A stretch of 5,677 nucleotides of DNA from a virus (IMGVR_UViG_2778260996_000009:1-5677); one strand, 5' to 3'; shown: positions 1-5,677, counted from the stretch's first letter. A program made the numbers and translations. Notes: generated from the letters alone by a model not told the origin.

Positions 1-375
1 GCACCACCCCGTCAGTAGCTGAACAGGAGGGACAGCTGATAGAAACAGAAGCCACTGGAGCACCTCAAAAACACCATCATACACTAAATCAGTAAGTTGG
101 CAGCATCACCTATCACCAGAGTTTAATGTGTGATTTTTTATTTATCGTCGAACCTGGATTGTTTATCATTGGCCTTAACAAAGTTAACGGCTAATAAGAT
201 TATTTCCATCACTTCGTGAGAGCTTCATGCCTTGAGAGGATCTCAATTTTCTTTTGCAATGAGACAGGCGCTTCCTGTTGTTATGGTATAGTACCCCGCT
301 ATTGAGCCTCCTGAATAGTGATGCTGAATAACATAACCCCATGATATATCGATAAAATAATCTCTACATTTGAAA

Positions 376-498
376 ATGCACGGTAATTCTGAAATGCAAA
401 AAATCAACCAAACCAGCGCAATGCCTGAAAAAACTGACGTTCACTGGAGTGGTCGGTTTAGCGTTGCACCAATGCTCGATAGGATGTACCGTTTTTGA
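376..498 (+). pseudogene. dusA: Truncated 5' fragment of tRNA-dihydrouridine synthase A, interrupted by element insertion; first ~35 codons DusA-like, then divergent tail and TGA stop
   Basis: Translation from ATG 376 (in frame with ATG 421) gives MHGNSEMQKINQTSAMPEKTDVHWSGRFSVAPMLD followed by RMYRF and a stop. The RFSVAPMLD segment matches the conserved N-terminal motif of DusA-type enzymes, which normally continue with WTDRH.RYF. The frame instead diverges after codon D at ~480 and stops at 496-498. No convincing Shine-Dalgarno lies upstream of 376, so the true start could be 376 or a later in-frame ATG. Identity rests on my recall of the DusA N-terminus, not on a search. Confidence 0.55.
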
Positions 499-500
499 AA
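470..500. other. Inferred host/element junction (att core region) inside the dusA 5' end
   Basis: This is where the DusA-like reading frame stops resembling DusA (after ...APMLD, ~480). Elements carrying dusA-specific integrases are known to insert in the 5' end of dusA. The exact core boundaries cannot be set without the other junction or an uninterrupted dusA. Confidence 0.35.
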
Positions 501-555
501 AACAACTAGTTATACACTTTGTGGGAGCCTATTGGGAACCTGAAGTTTTGCTCTT

Positions 556-575
556 TCTATTCATATCTATTCATA
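556..575. repeat. Perfect tandem direct repeat tctattcata x2
   Basis: Read directly: tctattcata at 556-565 and again at 566-575, in the non-coding region between the inferred att junction and the first element gene. Possible protein-binding site (arm-type, IHF or operator); function unknown. Confidence 0.5.
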
Positions 576-600
576 AAGCACCATTTGCTGCCTTATCTGA

Positions 601-629
601 TTGACCAAAAACAACCGCGGTTATAGACT
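601..629 (+). promoter_or_regulatory. Candidate sigma70 promoter for the 683..1673 operon
   Basis: TTGACC at 601-606 (5/6 match to the -35 consensus), a 17-bp spacer, then TAGACT at 624-629 (4/6 match to the -10 consensus), about 55 bp upstream of the ATG at 683. A short inverted repeat ctaag-N7-cttag (643-659) follows. Sequence-only prediction. Confidence 0.3.
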
Positions 630-682
630 TTGCTCCAAATAGCTAAGGCTATTGCTTAGTAAGTAAAACAGTTGAGGTTGCC

Positions 683-1222
683 ATGAATCCGTTTAACGCC
701 ATTACTTTTGCTGCATTGTGCGGGCCTCTGGCTTGTCCTGCTGCTATGGCGCAGGAGTTCATCATCCAGCCAGCCCCTGTGATTGCTAAACCTTTTGAGT
801 ACTCTCCTTCTGTTGAGGAATTCTCACGCAAAATGGAAGAGGGTAAGGAGATCTTGCAAAAGTTAACAATTGCAGCAGATGACTACTATATCTGTTTGAT
901 TGATCTTAATAGCCAAGATGCTCGCGAGTTTGTTTCCAAAAACGGGACAGATACGACAGAGGCATGCGAAATGTTCCTGCGTGCTTTTGAAGAAGAAGTG
1001 AAGCGTACAATTGAATCGCCTCTGCCTGAATTTATCAGGTCAGAACTGAAGGTTTACTGGCGTCATATTGCTAAAGCTCGCTCATCTGTCACTCGCCTTA
1101 ACAATTACATAAAGAGCATATTTAAAGAAACTGTTACTTTTAGCGGGCGCGCGGATCTTGCTGAAATTGCAGCACTAGCTAGTCACACATCAAATAAGCT
1201 AAAATCGATGCAATTTCACTAA
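683..1222 (+). CDS. Hypothetical protein, 179 aa, with hydrophobic N-terminal segment (possible signal peptide); candidate partner of the downstream YafO-like toxin
   Basis: ORF with a Shine-Dalgarno GAGGT at 673-677, 5 nt before the ATG at 683. The N-terminus MNPFNAITFAALCGPLACPAAMA-QEF is hydrophobic with an AxA-like cleavage motif but has no basic n-region, so export is uncertain. I recognise no family in it. It lies 16 nt upstream of the YafO-like gene on the same strand. Confidence 0.65.
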   Translation: MNPFNAITFAALCGPLACPAAMAQEFIIQPAPVIAKPFEYSPSVEEFSRKMEEGKEILQKLTIAADDYYICLIDLNSQDAREFVSKNGTDTTEACEMFLRAFEEEVKRTIESPLPEFIRSELKVYWRHIAKARSSVTRLNNYIKSIFKETVTFSGRADLAEIAALASHTSNKLKSMQFH

Positions 1223-1238
1223 CCGATAGCGGACGACC

Positions 1239-1673
1239 ATGCATCTAGAAGTCTCTATTAATCCAGAAACTAGAGCTGAATTTTTTGATGAAGTTTTTCT
1301 CAAATTCCCGGAGCTAGAGTCTTCTATCATTGATGATTTCAAGAGATACAAAGCAACCGGTGAGCTTCCGCATTATTTCGGTAGGGACGTTGCGTATACT
1401 CAGCCTTATGGTGCTTTTCGGGCTGGGTTGATGCATATCCATCTTTGTCTACCGCCAAACAAGTTTCCCGAGAAACTTCCACAACCGGATAGGGTCTGCA
1501 AGAAAGGTGATCCTGATAATGATGCTTGTCTTGTGTATGTCCAAGGTGAGCTTTATGAGAATAAATATTCACTCATTGCTATTATGTATCCCGATGCACA
1601 TGAAAAAGCAAGAAAACATGATGTGATGAGCTATCTGGCGCGAATTGCCCAGAATTATAAAGATGAAAACTAA
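1239..1673 (+). CDS. YafO-family toxin-like protein (ribosome-dependent mRNA interferase family), 144 aa
   Basis: The translation contains FGRDVAYT, MHIHLCLPPNKFP, CLVYVQGELYE, LIAIMYPDAHEKARKHD and YLARIA. These align with the E. coli YafO segments FGRDALYD, AHIHLANENNPFP, HLVYCQGAFDE, LIAILKPEPHKLARDN and KMAEA as I recall them. Weak SD (GGA) upstream of the ATG at 1239. The TAA stop at 1671-1673 is followed directly by a terminator hairpin. Confidence 0.65.
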   Translation: MHLEVSINPETRAEFFDEVFLKFPELESSIIDDFKRYKATGELPHYFGRDVAYTQPYGAFRAGLMHIHLCLPPNKFPEKLPQPDRVCKKGDPDNDACLVYVQGELYENKYSLIAIMYPDAHEKARKHDVMSYLARIAQNYKDEN

Positions 1674-1693
1674 CCCGCCGAAGCGGGTTTTTT
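1673..1693. terminator. Rho-independent terminator hairpin shared by convergent transcription units
   Basis: Stem ACCCGC (1673-1678), loop CGAA (1679-1682), stem GCGGGT (1683-1688), followed by a run of six T (1688-1693) on the plus strand. It sits between the plus-strand stop (1671-1673) and the minus-strand stop (1700-1702). The minus-strand side has a weaker U-tract. Confidence 0.7.
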
Positions 1694-1699
1694 GTGAGA

Positions 1700-1972
1700 T
1701 TAGTTATTTATTTTCCTATTTGTTCTTACCCTCTCCCATTCAATTCTGCCTTCTTCACGCCGTTTATCTATATATTCAGCAAGATCCTGAATGTTGATGC
1801 AGCGCTTTGCTTTCTGTGATGTACCAACACGATAAGTCGGGATCGGCAACTGGCATGCATTTGCTTTCGCTTCTGCTGTGTTAGGGCTCATACCGAAATA
1901 CTTTTGGCATACAGCTGACAGCTCAATGTTTGGGGTATTGAATTCAGCCATCAGTAAAAACAAGGTGTTCAT
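1700..1972 (-). CDS. PrtN-family DNA-binding protein (excisionase-like / pyocin-activator-like), ~90 aa
   Basis: From ATG 1972 the protein reads MNTLFLLMAEFNTP...LPIPTYRVGTSQKAKRCINIQDLAEYIDKRREEG, which resembles the N-terminus and core of PrtN-family proteins (MNT.FLLMA ... DLA.Y.D.RR). The ATG at 1972 has GGAG 6 nt upstream. The ORF track begins at GTG 1999 without an SD, so 1972 is preferred. Confidence 0.7.
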   Translation of the reverse strand: MNTLFLLMAEFNTPNIELSAVCQKYFGMSPNTAEAKANACQLPIPTYRVGTSQKAKRCINIQDLAEYIDKRREEGRIEWERVRTNRKINN

Positions 1973-2008
1973 AATTTTCTCCATCAAAACCGGCTGCACC
2001 CGGGAAAA

Positions 2009-2581
2009 TCATAATTCTGTGCTGGTGGCAGGAATTAATTTCTGCCAGATAGCGGAAACATATTTTGCCTGATGACGGGCATCAGCCAGGGCGTTGTGCC
2101 GTTCGCCATCGAAAGGCATGTCCATTTTGGGGTCGAATCCGATGGAACGCCCAAGCGTAACGATCGTGCGTACATCGTGGTCATTCCAGTACGCCCACGG
2201 GCAGATTTGTCCTGCTCGCTCATAAGCTCCACGTAAAATTACGTTGTCGAAGGTGGCCCCGTTACCCCAGACTTTTAAATATTTCGTATTGTCTGCGTGC
2301 CGGTTAATGAAATGGTTTAGTTCTGAGAGAGCATCGCTGATCGACAAAGTATCATCAATACAGATTGCAGCTCGCGCTTCAGGGCTTTGTTTCAACCACC
2401 ACAGGATGGTATCGCCGTCAGGTGTAGCTCCTTGCTTCATAGCACTGTCCAGGCTGACAACCGCATAGAATTCTTGTCCGATGTCTCCGGTTTCTGGAGT
2501 GAAGAACACCGCGCCAATAGAAACGATCGGCGCATCCTTATTTTTCCCCATCGTCTCAAGGTCGATCATTAAGTTGTTCAT
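2009..2581 (-). CDS. DEDDh-type 3'-5' exonuclease (DnaQ-like), ~190 aa
   Basis: The three exonuclease motifs are visible: MIDLETMG (Exo I, D-x-E), VWGNGATFDNVIL (Exo II) and ERHNALADARHQAKY (Exo III with His). An SD AGGAGGTG lies 5 nt upstream of the ATG at 2581. The GTG at 2584 used by the ORF track is too close to the SD. The ATG overlaps the stop of the upstream DUF551 gene (TGATG). Confidence 0.8.
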   Translation of the reverse strand: MNNLMIDLETMGKNKDAPIVSIGAVFFTPETGDIGQEFYAVVSLDSAMKQGATPDGDTILWWLKQSPEARAAICIDDTLSISDALSELNHFINRHADNTKYLKVWGNGATFDNVILRGAYERAGQICPWAYWNDHDVRTIVTLGRSIGFDPKMDMPFDGERHNALADARHQAKYVSAIWQKLIPATSTEL

Positions 2582-3159
2582 CACTTCACCTCCTGCGGCG
2601 GTTCCGGTAGCGGCATCCAGTGAGTTGCTTGCTCAATACCATTACCCGACTTAATCGTTGCATCTCCGCGCCGAAAAGTGCTTCCGGTATAGCGTGCGGA
2701 GCATATTAGCGGTTCAACCAGAGAGCTATCGAAATTCACCGAAATGAGCACGTTCTGATTCTTCTCAGGCATTCGCTCACTACAGCTTATCCAACTATCC
2801 GGAGTTACCGGAGAGTTGGTTGACGTTTCCGAGGTTTCCCGAAAATTATTGGTTGACGAATCCTTATTTTCCCGAAAGTTTCCAGCCTGAAGCATGGCGG
2901 CGCGGTGACACCAGATAATCCAGCCAAGCGCCATATCCCATGCCATGTATTCTCTATCGCCATTTTTCGCCCTGCGGCGATCTACAGATTCCCCGAAACG
3001 CTTCTCCATAAATAATTCATAGGCTGCTCGTTCATCCGATACTGCTGCCAGTGATGCCAGTGCAATTCGTGCCAGTTCCATTTGTTCGCCACGGGTAAGT
3101 CCGTTTCCAAGCGGATTTTTAATGAACAATTCAATACGTTCTTTGGTAATAGTGGTCAT
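2581..3159 (-). CDS. Phage protein with C-terminal DUF551-like domain, 192 aa, with internal 11-aa tandem repeat linker
   Basis: The C-terminus ...NVLISVNF...CSARYTGSTF...EQATHWMPLPEPP matches the DUF551 signature (W.PLPEPP) common in enterobacterial prophage early regions. An SD AAGGAG lies 6 nt upstream of the ATG at 3159. The N-terminal ~110 aa are unassigned. Confidence 0.7.
   Translation of the reverse strand: MTTITKERIELFIKNPLGNGLTRGEQMELARIALASLAAVSDERAAYELFMEKRFGESVDRRRAKNGDREYMAWDMALGWIIWCHRAAMLQAGNFRENKDSSTNNFRETSETSTNSPVTPDSWISCSERMPEKNQNVLISVNFDSSLVEPLICSARYTGSTFRRGDATIKSGNGIEQATHWMPLPEPPQEVK
2816..2881. repeat. Imperfect 33-bp tandem repeat (2 units, ~25/33 identical) inside the DUF551 CDS
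   Basis: Unit 1 (2816-2848) ttggttgacgtttccgaggtttcccgaaaatta and unit 2 (2849-2881) ttggttgacgaatccttattttcccgaaagttt. On the coding (minus) strand they encode NFRENKDSSTN / NFRETSETSTN. Confidence 0.6.
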
Positions 3160-3169
3160 GTGTTACTCC

Positions 3170-3433
3170 TTAACCCGCAGTGCTTTCAACTGACGAGGGG
3201 AACAAAATCTTTTCTTTAAATCCGGCATTCATATCATGGACAGCAACACACCAATCCATTGACGAACGATCATCAAGAGCCTCCATGATTTCATCCATGC
3301 GGCGTAGGTCATACAGGTAAATGCTTTTATCGCCAATGGTGTAAAAACCAATTTTTTTCGGTGACGGGCAGCGATCAAGAACGTTCTGTAATTCGCTCAA
3401 CCATGCCTGTTCCTTTTTTGTCAAAGTTGCCAT
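3170..3433 (-). CDS. Hypothetical phage early protein, 87 aa
   Basis: ORF with a strong SD AAGGAG 6 nt upstream of the ATG at 3433. It starts 1 nt after the stop of the upstream Ead-like gene. No recognisable motif. Confidence 0.6.
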   Translation of the reverse strand: MATLTKKEQAWLSELQNVLDRCPSPKKIGFYTIGDKSIYLYDLRRMDEIMEALDDRSSMDWCVAVHDMNAGFKEKILFPSSVESTAG

Positions 3434-3434
3434 A

Positions 3435-3833
3435 TCACTCTCCTTTGATGCGAATGCCAGCGACGCGTAGTGCGTGTTCTAAGTCAATCAGGCAAAGCCA
3501 ACTGCCATTTTCTTTAGGTATCATGACATGTCGCTTATCAGCATTTATTGGGTGCCCATATCGAAGGTCGTAGCGAGTCGGTAATTGAACTTCCCTCGCT
3601 TCCAGTTCTGTAATGCGTTTGTTTTTAGCTTCTAGTTCATCCAGCAGCGCCAGCACGGTTTCTGGTCCGGTCAGAAATTTGAAGGCGTTGAGCACATCAA
3701 TATCCACACCGTAATCTTTAAGTTCCTGTTCACTTAACAAATCATCAGCAGCTGGCAACATTAACAGGCGTTCCATTGCTTGAATTGCACGTTCCGCCGC
3801 CTCACGCAGTGCCTGATAGTCAATCTTGCTCAC
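3435..3833 (-). CDS. Ead/Ea22-like family protein, 132 aa, GTG start
   Basis: The N-terminus MSKIDYQALREAAERAIQ resembles the conserved N-terminal segment (..QALREAAEKA..) of Ead/Ea22-like proteins from lambdoid prophage early-left regions. The start codon is GTG (rc of cac 3831-3833), preceded by a strong SD AAGGAGG with a 6-nt spacer, and overlaps the upstream stop (GTGA). Confidence 0.65.
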   Translation of the reverse strand: MSKIDYQALREAAERAIQAMERLLMLPAADDLLSEQELKDYGVDIDVLNAFKFLTGPETVLALLDELEAKNKRITELEAREVQLPTRYDLRYGHPINADKRHVMIPKENGSWLCLIDLEHALRVAGIRIKGE

Positions 3834-4069
3834 TGGTTGCCTCCTTTACGGATCTGCGCAGCGATGCACGAAAAAAAAGACTCTCGCGTATGACTGTTAA
3901 GAGCTGGCGCGAACGCCGCGTTAAGAACGGCAGCATCACAGCCGTCATCGATATAGAGCGCAATTTTTTTCTCCAGGCGTGCTTTGGCTTCCTGCAACTG
4001 CATACCCCGGCACGCACGCGGGATATACTCAGCAATTTGAGCGATAGATTTTTCGTTCTGTTTAAACAT
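3830..4069 (-). CDS. Hypothetical small phage protein, 79 aa
   Basis: ORF with an SD GAGGTG 4 nt upstream of the ATG at 4069. It overlaps the upstream gene by 8 nt and the downstream GTG start by 4 nt (translational coupling). No recognised family. Confidence 0.55.
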   Translation of the reverse strand: MFKQNEKSIAQIAEYIPRACRGMQLQEAKARLEKKIALYIDDGCDAAVLNAAFAPALNSHTRESFFSCIAAQIRKGGNQ

Positions 4070-4265
4070 GCTTCACCTCGATAGGCTTGATGGTGTCGAT
4101 CAGTAGTCGGCGGCGCGTATTTTCTGCAAAGTGGCGGCGTCCGGTTTCTTTGTGGTAAAACTCGTTTTTGCCGACGACCCACATCCGCTCTGTCTGGTGA
4201 AGTTTTTTTACCTGCGGGCCGTCTTTGGTGATCACAATGCCGGTATGGGTTTTTACGATTGTCAT
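4062..4265 (-). CDS. Hypothetical small basic phage protein, 67 aa
   Basis: ORF with an SD AGAGGTGG immediately upstream of the ATG at 4265. Its start overlaps the stop of the PAPS-reductase-like gene (ATGA). No recognised family. Confidence 0.55.
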   Translation of the reverse strand: MTIVKTHTGIVITKDGPQVKKLHQTERMWVVGKNEFYHKETGRRHFAENTRRRLLIDTIKPIEVKHV

Positions 4266-5140
4266 GCCACCACCTCTTCGAATTTCAATTCCAATTGATC
4301 ACCCCAGATTTCACATGACTCTGAACACGAGCCGGTATCGAATCGCCTGGCTTGCACCATCGCCTGATACAAATTTCTGTAGTCGCTGTCGGCATACATT
4401 CTGGCAATCCCGTCAAGGCTCAGATGACCACGGTACATAACGTCTTTATTTGTCTTTCGGTGACCATCCCGGACGTGTTTACCTGTAACCAGCTCATTAA
4501 AAACTCGCATCAGACCAGGTTCGTCTTTACATGCAAGCCCCAGCTTTTGCGTGGACTTTTTGATGCAGAAAACACAGTTCCCGAGGTGCTCCGGGATTTG
4601 CAAATCAAAAGGTTGTTTATGCCACCACCGGATAACATCCGACTTATCAAAATCAGATAGCTCGGCAAGATACCGGACGCCCGATTTCGGTTTCAGCCTA
4701 CGAGGTTCGTCTGCACGAATACCCAGCCATGTGATGTAATTCCCTCGTCCGAAATGGTCATCGCAGTATTTTGTGAAGGGGGTGAGTTTTAATCTGTCAG
4801 TGCAGAACGCGCCGCCGATGTATGGCGTGCCATATTTTTTTACCATGTCCATAAACGGTTTAAGCACCGGCATTCGTGTCTGAATATCCTTTGGTTCCCA
4901 TTCCGTATAACCATTTGGCTGCCCAAGCTCTGGATTTATATCGACCTGCAACACAGTTAGCGGTATGCCCCAGAACTTCACAACCTCCCGAATAAAGCGG
5001 TATGTCAGCGGATGTTCGCAACCGGTATCCATAAAGATGTAGCAGACGTTATTTCCAGTCTTTCTTTGTTCTTCCATCAGGTGAACAAGATATGCAGATG
5101 TTCTCCCGCCAGAAAAACTAACTACATGAGTTATGCACAT
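4262..5140 (-). CDS. Phosphoadenosine-phosphosulfate (PAPS) reductase-like PP-loop family protein, 292 aa
   Basis: The N-terminal VVSFSGGRTS is the PP-loop motif (SGGxDS-type) of the PAPS reductase / ATP-sulfurylase-like superfamily. The length is typical of phage-encoded PAPS-reductase-like proteins. The start overlaps the end of the HD gene by 10 nt. A Cys-rich C-terminus (CSESCEIWG) is present. Confidence 0.8.
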   Translation of the reverse strand: MCITHVVSFSGGRTSAYLVHLMEEQRKTGNNVCYIFMDTGCEHPLTYRFIREVVKFWGIPLTVLQVDINPELGQPNGYTEWEPKDIQTRMPVLKPFMDMVKKYGTPYIGGAFCTDRLKLTPFTKYCDDHFGRGNYITWLGIRADEPRRLKPKSGVRYLAELSDFDKSDVIRWWHKQPFDLQIPEHLGNCVFCIKKSTQKLGLACKDEPGLMRVFNELVTGKHVRDGHRKTNKDVMYRGHLSLDGIARMYADSDYRNLYQAMVQARRFDTGSCSESCEIWGDQLELKFEEVVA

Positions 5141-5667
5141 TTGCGTAATTCCGATAACTCGTTAAAACGTTCCATAAACATCCCGTAGGCATGGCCTGGT
5201 GACAGTGGAATAACTTTGAACATCTCTGTTGCCGGGATGCCTTCCAGTACAGGCCAGAAAGAGCCATCATCAAGCCCGAGATCGCGGCGTTCGGTTGCCA
5301 GCATAATGAGATCGGCATATTTCACTGGCGTGCTCATAACAGGAGGTAACCCGTATTTCTCACGGATTACGGCGTCTATTTTTTCTTCCATCCGTTTATA
5401 GTCAGGAAGAAGTCGTTTCAGTGGCGCGGGGATGTCCTGGCAATATGCTTCTGTTGCATCATGCATTAACGCTTCGAAAGCAAACTCCTGCGGTACCAGC
5501 TGGCTGCAAAGCACCGCATGTTGGGCGACGCTGTAGAAGTGTGAAAGATGCCCTGCAAAGCGACAGATATTTGAGAGGGAAACTGCGATATCGTTAATCA
5601 CGATGTCGTCTTTATTTATCTTGTCATAATAAAAATGCTTCCCGGAAAAAGTTTTAATAAATGACAT
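5131..5667 (-). CDS. HD-domain phosphohydrolase (YfbR/YfdR-like 5'-deoxynucleotidase family), 178 aa
   Basis: Contains the H...HD...D metal-binding pattern (VAQHAV ... EALMHDATEAY ... D). An SD GGAG lies 6 nt upstream of the ATG at 5667. The size and sequence resemble the prophage HD proteins of E. coli (YfdR-like), from memory. Confidence 0.8.
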   Translation of the reverse strand: MSFIKTFSGKHFYYDKINKDDIVINDIAVSLSNICRFAGHLSHFYSVAQHAVLCSQLVPQEFAFEALMHDATEAYCQDIPAPLKRLLPDYKRMEEKIDAVIREKYGLPPVMSTPVKYADLIMLATERRDLGLDDGSFWPVLEGIPATEMFKVIPLSPGHAYGMFMERFNELSELRKCA

Positions 5668-5677
5668 TTTGTTCTCC

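Follow-up and report, generated by a model that had tools for sequence, protein, structure and literature searches.

The window analysed here, a 5,677-nt stretch of viral DNA taken as a whole, very probably contains one end of a lambdoid prophage that integrated into the 5' end of dusA by means of a recombination module of the dusA-specific type; this end would be the int-distal junction, with the integrase gene (int) located elsewhere in the prophage. The layout in which no integrase is found beside the excisionase-like gene is ordinary and has already been described in the literature. The part of the window from 464 to 2100 was 99.94% identical to phage PhiR40_1, with one mismatch in 1637 bases, and the change at this base (1164) results in G161E in a 179-aa protein. 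Three phages, PhiR40_1 (PV340560.1), mEp460 (NC_019716.1) and 1720a-02 (KF030445.1), have the same attachment-site arm, the same kind of RdfN-like protein (100%, 92% and 87% identical to that of the window, respectively) and the same early-left genes as the window. PhiR40_1 alone of these three carries the identical YafO-like cassette, whereas mEp460 and 1720a-02 hold other cassettes in this slot. The window has an IS1 in its host flank, and the single base change at 1164 sets it apart from PhiR40_1. Phage mEp460 is presumably an isolated phage. PhiR40.1 and its relatives have been employed as plaque-forming temperate phages (PMC13190303), and 1720a-02 lysogenises Citrobacter rodentium at dusA, for which the excised attP circles have been sequenced (Balasubramanian 2019, PMC6328086). 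The features of the window are listed in Table 1.

Table 1. Features identified in the 5,677-nt window, with positions counted from its first base.
Feature	Position	Strand	Remarks
IS1 left end	1..110	-	Terminal inverted repeat at about 88-110, abutting base 111; insA begins here and is read leftward, past the window edge
yjbM (DUF2713)-dusA chromosomal intergenic DNA	111..375		Collinear with EC332, SM107, 12A (downstream of the DUF2713 gene) and CP042947.1
Displaced native dusA 5' end, first ~35 codons	376..480	+	Outer prophage boundary; the frame continues to a stop at 498
Crossover core ATGCTCGA	472..479		Common to host dusA, the phage dusA mimic and attP
Attachment-site phage arm	480..541		Conserved among relatives; two GGGARCC(T) motifs in direct repeat (523-530, 534-541)
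Exchangeable cargo cassette	542..1696	+	179-aa gene at 683-1222, YafO-like gene at 1239-1673, terminator hairpin at 1672-1689
rdfN-like gene, predicted PrtN-family recombination directionality factor (excisionase)	1700..1972	-	Final gene in the leftward early operon; 99 aa if translation starts at an upstream GTG at 1999
Leftward early genes: 3'-5' exonuclease, DUF551, Ead/Ea22-like, PAPS-reductase-like, YfdR-like 5'-deoxynucleotidase	2009..5667	-	Assigned by Pfam; context, outside the recombination module

Host flank and attachment site

The preliminary description did not mention that the first 110 bases of the window, instead of being host flank, form the left end of an IS1; the left edge of the window showed 98.2% identity over 111 nt to the annotated IS1A end in L002. 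The element sits in the intergenic region between yjbM and dusA, and every E. coli match to the host flank starts at base 111 of the window. The junction between IS1 and host DNA was found neither in 5426 complete E. coli genomes nor in the GTDB representatives or the JGI metagenome contigs, so the IS1 insertion is lineage-specific. An IS1-mediated inversion or deletion could separate the two junctions of a prophage, and the presence of an IS1 end with a lineage-specific junction agrees with the idea that the prophage of this particular genome, whatever the norm of its family, was disabled or split by IS1 activity. We regard this as unlikely, because the IS1 is 362 bp away from the att core, in host DNA, where a simple insertion would leave the core and the phage arm untouched and should have no effect on recombination, and because the 5567 bases to the right of it (111-5677) contain only one mismatch, again at 1164, to the chromosome CP042947.1, which runs uninterrupted across base 111 and has no IS1 there.

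The att junction proposed earlier proved to be real, in that the native dusA 5' end is directly followed by phage DNA, and its core could be defined by alignments. When the window junction, the int-side junction of E. coli EC332 and the attP of mEp460 were compared, no block other than ATGCTCGA was identical between the host and phage versions, and the 7-base core reported for phage 1720a-02 falls inside this block (PMC6328086). A short identical core is thus present at all three sites, and dusA is interrupted within its 5' end, the displaced native portion lying outermost, as in dusA elements in general. The equivalent of 376-480 in EC332, SM107 and 12A carries the RefSeq label of a truncated tRNA-dihydrouridine synthase pseudogene. 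Farrugia et al. (2015, PMC4482086) described, for more than 200 bacteria, integrases adjoining the 5' end of dusA; there, the element supplies a new 5' end to the gene and the original 5' end becomes the outer boundary of the element.

The region from 464 to 541/549 was 86-96% identical to mEp460, 1720a-02, SM107 and L005, and the homology ends beyond it. Two copies of the GGGARCC(T) motif are found in the phage arm (480-541), as compared to 0.18 expected, and three further copies of GGGARCC are present in the int-proximal arm. Five of the nine copies in the 42 kb genome of PhiR40_1 cluster in attP. These motifs are candidate arm-type sites of the integrase, with a putative role in its binding.

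The PrtN-family gene and the proposed control of excision

The 90-aa protein encoded by the gene next to the cassette belongs to the PrtN family (PF11112, E=4.4e-24, 84.8 bits against a cutoff of 24.2), and it is predicted to be the recombination directionality factor (RDF). The gene and the YafO-like pair face each other and end at a single hairpin (1672-1689), which scores as a terminator on both strands. The early genes of the relatives are arranged in the same order, with the repressor and cro-like genes located further to the right. Rivard et al. (2021, PMC8409611) reported that dusA-specific elements have no xis beside int, that all of them carry a PrtN-family gene named rdfN, and that RdfN is necessary and, together with Int, sufficient for excision. 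By analogy with RdfN, the PrtN-family protein of the window is probably the factor required for excision of this prophage.

The similarity of the window to the dusA-specific elements (PMC4482086, PMC8409611) includes the insertion in the dusA 5' end, the outermost position of the original 5' end and a small PF11112 protein encoded away from int; in the relatives of the window it extends to the replacement 5' end carried by the element, to the integrase beside the rebuilt dusA and to the lack of a xis gene beside int. There are also differences. The element described here is a lambdoid E. coli phage and not a mobilizable island, and its rdfN lies at the end of the early-left operon, whereas in the mobilizable islands it is driven by an AcaCD-dependent promoter; there, Pint is active regardless of the activator AcaCD, and PrdfN is strongly induced by it (PMC8409611). 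The RdfN-like protein of the window (90 aa) and the Vibrio RdfN (76 aa) are presumably very divergent.

The preliminary description had offered that the PrtN-like protein is a regulator and not an excisionase. A purely transcriptional activator, acting like the Pseudomonas PrtN on pyocin genes and leaving excision to another factor or to none, would agree with the name of the Pfam family, which refers to the pyocin activator. A search of PDB sequences with the PrtN-like, 179-aa and YafO-like proteins gave nothing useful, and the nearest structural match of the PrtN-like protein was the Cox protein of phage P2 (PDB 4LHF), with 8% sequence identity and no relationship at the sequence level. Cox is a transcriptional regulator that also serves as the lytic repressor of P2, which is again in keeping with an activator. 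However, the requirement of RdfN, a member of the same Pfam family, for excision, the match to the 'excisionase' family PHROG 1300 (E=3e-40), and the position of the gene next to att at the end of the early-left operon, which is the position of an RDF, all argue against an activator without a role in excision, and no other xis-like gene was annotated near either junction in the relatives. We therefore hold a purely regulatory function to be quite improbable, and the protein may have a dual role as RDF and regulator.

Under the preferred reading, i.e. a dusA prophage whose integrase lies at the other end, the order in the circular phage genome would be int (leftward), attP within the phage copy of the dusA 5' end, the variable plus-strand cassette, rdfN (leftward) and the rest of the early-left operon. 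Integration would move int to the far end, where it and the rebuilt dusA diverge, and the end seen in the window would retain the displaced native 5' end of dusA together with the cassette and rdfN. Upon loss of the repressor, the leftward early operon ending with rdfN would be transcribed, and RdfN would direct Int, whose separate promoter would lie in the int-proximal att arm, to recombine both junctions. Scans of the window and of the mEp460 attP revealed no promoter for int or rdfN above chance. Panis et al. (2010, PMC2951348) showed for KplE1, HK620 and Sf6 that transcription of int and of the RDF gene is uncoupled and that the int promoter lies inside an att arm. The module of these elements (IntS, TorI) resembles the present one in that the expression of the RDF governs excision, but its integrase and RDF belong to other families and its target is the argW tRNA gene, so that any autoregulation of the dusA-type integrase would be an analogy with the KplE1-type module.

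The position of the integrase in related prophages

The preliminary description noted the lack of an integrase-sized ORF in 1-1700, and this was confirmed by ORF listing, Pfam and tblastn. The biggest ORFs within 1-1700 encode the 179-aa protein (683-1222) and a 144-aa protein (1239-1673), both on the plus strand, and this two-gene YafO-like cassette fills the space between the att core and the PrtN-like gene. In the whole window, no integrase, intact or decayed, was detected in any frame by tblastn with the integrases of three relatives (best E=0.67). The expectation of an integrase at this place presumes the layout of phage lambda, which does not apply to this phage family. Both systems use a tyrosine integrase and a small RDF of winged-helix type, the gene of which is expressed as part of the leftward early operon. 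In lambda, int and xis are neighbours that are transcribed together, with attP beyond int, so that both genes are found at one end of the prophage. Here, in contrast, attP lies between the two, as seen in mEp460, and the window has no int adjoining the RDF gene.

All six relatives examined, among which are E. coli EC332 and O111:H2 12A and the phages PhiR40_1, mEp460 and 1720a-02, have a 366-aa tyrosine integrase at the other end of the prophage, encoded divergently from the rebuilt dusA. The junction of EC332 has the same order as the window (yjbM, dusA remnant, 179-aa gene, YafO, PrtN, exonuclease), and about 44 kb past this junction DinI and the integrase gene are followed by the divergent intact dusA. 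O111:H2 12A, PhiR40_1 and 1720a-02 likewise have int at the far end next to dusA, and the integrase gene of 1720a-02 is 1,098 nt long. Virion DNA of mEp460 carries, in this order, DinI, int, attP, a pair of small genes on the plus strand, the PrtN-family gene annotated as 'excisionase' and the exonuclease gene; with attP situated between int and the gene for excision, integration must place these two genes at opposite ends of the prophage. The integrases of EC332, mEp460 and PhiR40_1 match PF00589 and are 98.6-99.5% identical to each other. Among 24 contigs with the exact 179-aa protein that were read, all of the 10 shown have host genes on one side, followed by the cassette, the PrtN-like gene and the exonuclease gene, and contain no integrase. 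Out of 5426 complete genomes of E. coli, 663 have a junction of the window type and 740 the int-dusA junction, so that dusA prophage junctions occur in about 12-14% of them.

Our results thus favour the first alternative of the preliminary description, an integrase at the other end beside the reconstituted dusA, as seen in the six relatives and described for dusA elements (PMC4482086, PMC8409611), and the far end of this particular genome presumably still carries its integrase. The comparison with intact relatives that had been asked for yielded the same int-less end together with proven excision, and because intact related phages share this arrangement and are able to excise, the layout is not an anomaly. 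Neither the proposed replacement of int by cargo nor the proposed excision defect was borne out, as the window holds no integrase remnant, the cargo sits in a discrete exchangeable slot, and the same arrangement is found in the plaque-forming PhiR40_1 and in 1720a-02 with its sequenced attP circles. That the prophage lost int at this place, that the YafO-like cargo took its position and that the element is now locked in the chromosome is highly improbable: the int-less stretch 1-1700, the help that a toxin-type cassette could give in retaining a defective element and the existence of shortened remnants of this prophage family (e.g., junctions about 13 kb apart in NZ_AP025220.2) would fit such a loss, but PhiR40_1 forms plaques with the same cassette, one base off, and with int at its far end, relatives with other cassettes keep sharp boundaries at 541/549 and 1697/1721, and in free mEp460 int is on the other side of attP.

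The absence of an integrase beside an excisionase-like gene at a dusA junction should accordingly not be read as a sign of a defective prophage. Prophage callers and manual readers should seek int at the far end, next to the rebuilt dusA, and annotate the PrtN-family gene as RDF. Such a rule is of practical use because roughly one complete E. coli genome in eight has a member of this common family, to which Shiga-toxin phages also belong. Beyond correct annotation, its significance is small.

The exchangeable YafO-like cassette

The homology to mEp460, 1720a-02, SM107 and L005 that breaks at 541/549 returns at 1697/1721, and the relatives carry different cassettes between these same boundaries; the YafO-like pair therefore fills an exchangeable slot and has displaced no integrase. 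Three types of cassette were seen in the slot, i.e., the YafO-like pair, a Panacea-domain gene with a 182-aa partner, and a pair of 177-aa and 57-aa genes, all on the plus strand and thus oriented as the displaced dusA 5' end; a 182-aa gene is annotated in the slot of 1720a-02. The 144-aa protein matched the YafO toxin family (YafO_toxin, PF13957, E=1.9e-21, 76.5 bits against a cutoff of 25). Its score was below the NCBIfam equivalog cutoff (75.8 against 153), and the protein is for this reason a member of the family and not the K-12 YafO. The position just upstream of the YafO-like gene is occupied by the 179-aa gene and not by a YafN-type (RelB/DinJ-like) antitoxin gene. The 179-aa protein belongs to no Pfam, NCBIfam or PADLOC family, and its sole match was phrog_8416; the cassette proteins match phrog_8416 and phrog_1651, both of unknown function, and PADLOC has no model for them. 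A signal peptide was considered for the 179-aa protein, the N-terminus of which is of only moderate hydropathy. A promoter-like site was seen at 601-629, and since the promoter scans of the window were at chance level, no promoter is claimed.

No terminator was detected between 498 and 683, and because of this and of the shared orientation with dusA, the cassette may come under the host dusA promoter. It is possible, though doubtful, that the slot is a site at which toxin or defence cassettes are swapped, where the orphaned dusA promoter of the host may drive the cassette after integration and so allow lysogen-specific expression, and that the 179-aa protein represents a novel type of partner to a YafO-like toxin.

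Module exchange among dusA prophages

The recombination module of dusA prophages moves between phage types. E. coli EC332 and E. coli O111:H2 12A share the prophage ends with int, rdfN and the YafO cassette, and these ends surround differing virion modules. In EC332 the virion module has tail genes of the lambda type (gpJ, tail assembly G/T). The virion module of O111:H2 12A specifies a contractile tail and includes genes for the sheath, the tube and baseplate J/gp47. At the level of single genes, mosaicism is exemplified by the occurrence of the window's DUF551 protein (192 aa, encoded at 2581-3159) in unrelated prophages. An exact copy of this protein was also found in L004, L007-L009, L012 and L013, six prophage loci that carry RecT and a different integrase of the Arm-DNA-bind_3 type, and there it is encoded upstream of the terminase genes. 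In NZ_AP025220.2 (4339431-4352868), only about 13 kb separate the int-dusA junction from the rdfN-side region, and this locus appears to be a shortened prophage remnant that retains both ends.

A slot for variable cassettes next to rdfN

The att arm and rdfN enclose a slot whose cassettes are of at least three types: the YafO-like pair, a Panacea-domain gene with a 182-aa gene, or a 177-aa gene with a 57-aa gene. The displaced dusA 5' end and all of the slot cassettes share one orientation, and no terminator was detected between positions 498 and 683 of the window; read-through from the host dusA promoter into the slot cassette is possible in lysogens. About 25 bp separate the tandem repeat inside the cassette of the window from a promoter-like site downstream of it (601-629), and the repeat could be an operator of the cassette.

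Coordinates of features in the window and in three related loci (L005, L014 and L026)
Feature	Position	Remarks
YafO-like toxin and upstream 179-aa protein	window 683-1673	
Variable cassette slot, att arm to rdfN	window 542-1696; L014 5087-6144; L005 11464-12781; L026 167-1484	
Perfect tandem repeat, TCTATTCATA x2	window 556-575	inside cassette
IS1 end	window 1-110	left inverted repeat ends at 110; insA reads leftward; window begins within IS1

The 179-aa partner of the YafO-like toxin

The YafO-like toxin of the window lacks a YafN-type antitoxin. The 179-aa protein, mildly hydrophobic at its N-terminus, had no match in Pfam, NCBIfam or PADLOC and corresponds to phrog_8416 (function unknown); it is annotated as 'YafM antitoxin' in phage PhiR40_1 (PV340560.1), where the basis for the label is not visible. 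Position 1164 is the sole difference between the window and the E. coli chromosome CP042947.1 across 5567 bases, and likewise between the window and PhiR40_1 across 1637 bases. The window has A in place of G, which changes Gly161 of the 179-aa protein to Glu, and both variants are present in databases (WP_001067896.1 and WP_001067897.1).

Host flank

In the left flank of the window, IS1 is inserted directly past the yjbM terminator, and this IS1/host junction was absent from 5426 complete E. coli genomes, GTDB representative genomes and JGI metagenomes. In some strains (L016, L020, L022 and L025), the distance from zur to the 179-aa gene is only about 420 bp, and therefore yjbM (DUF2713) is missing from the host flank of these prophages.
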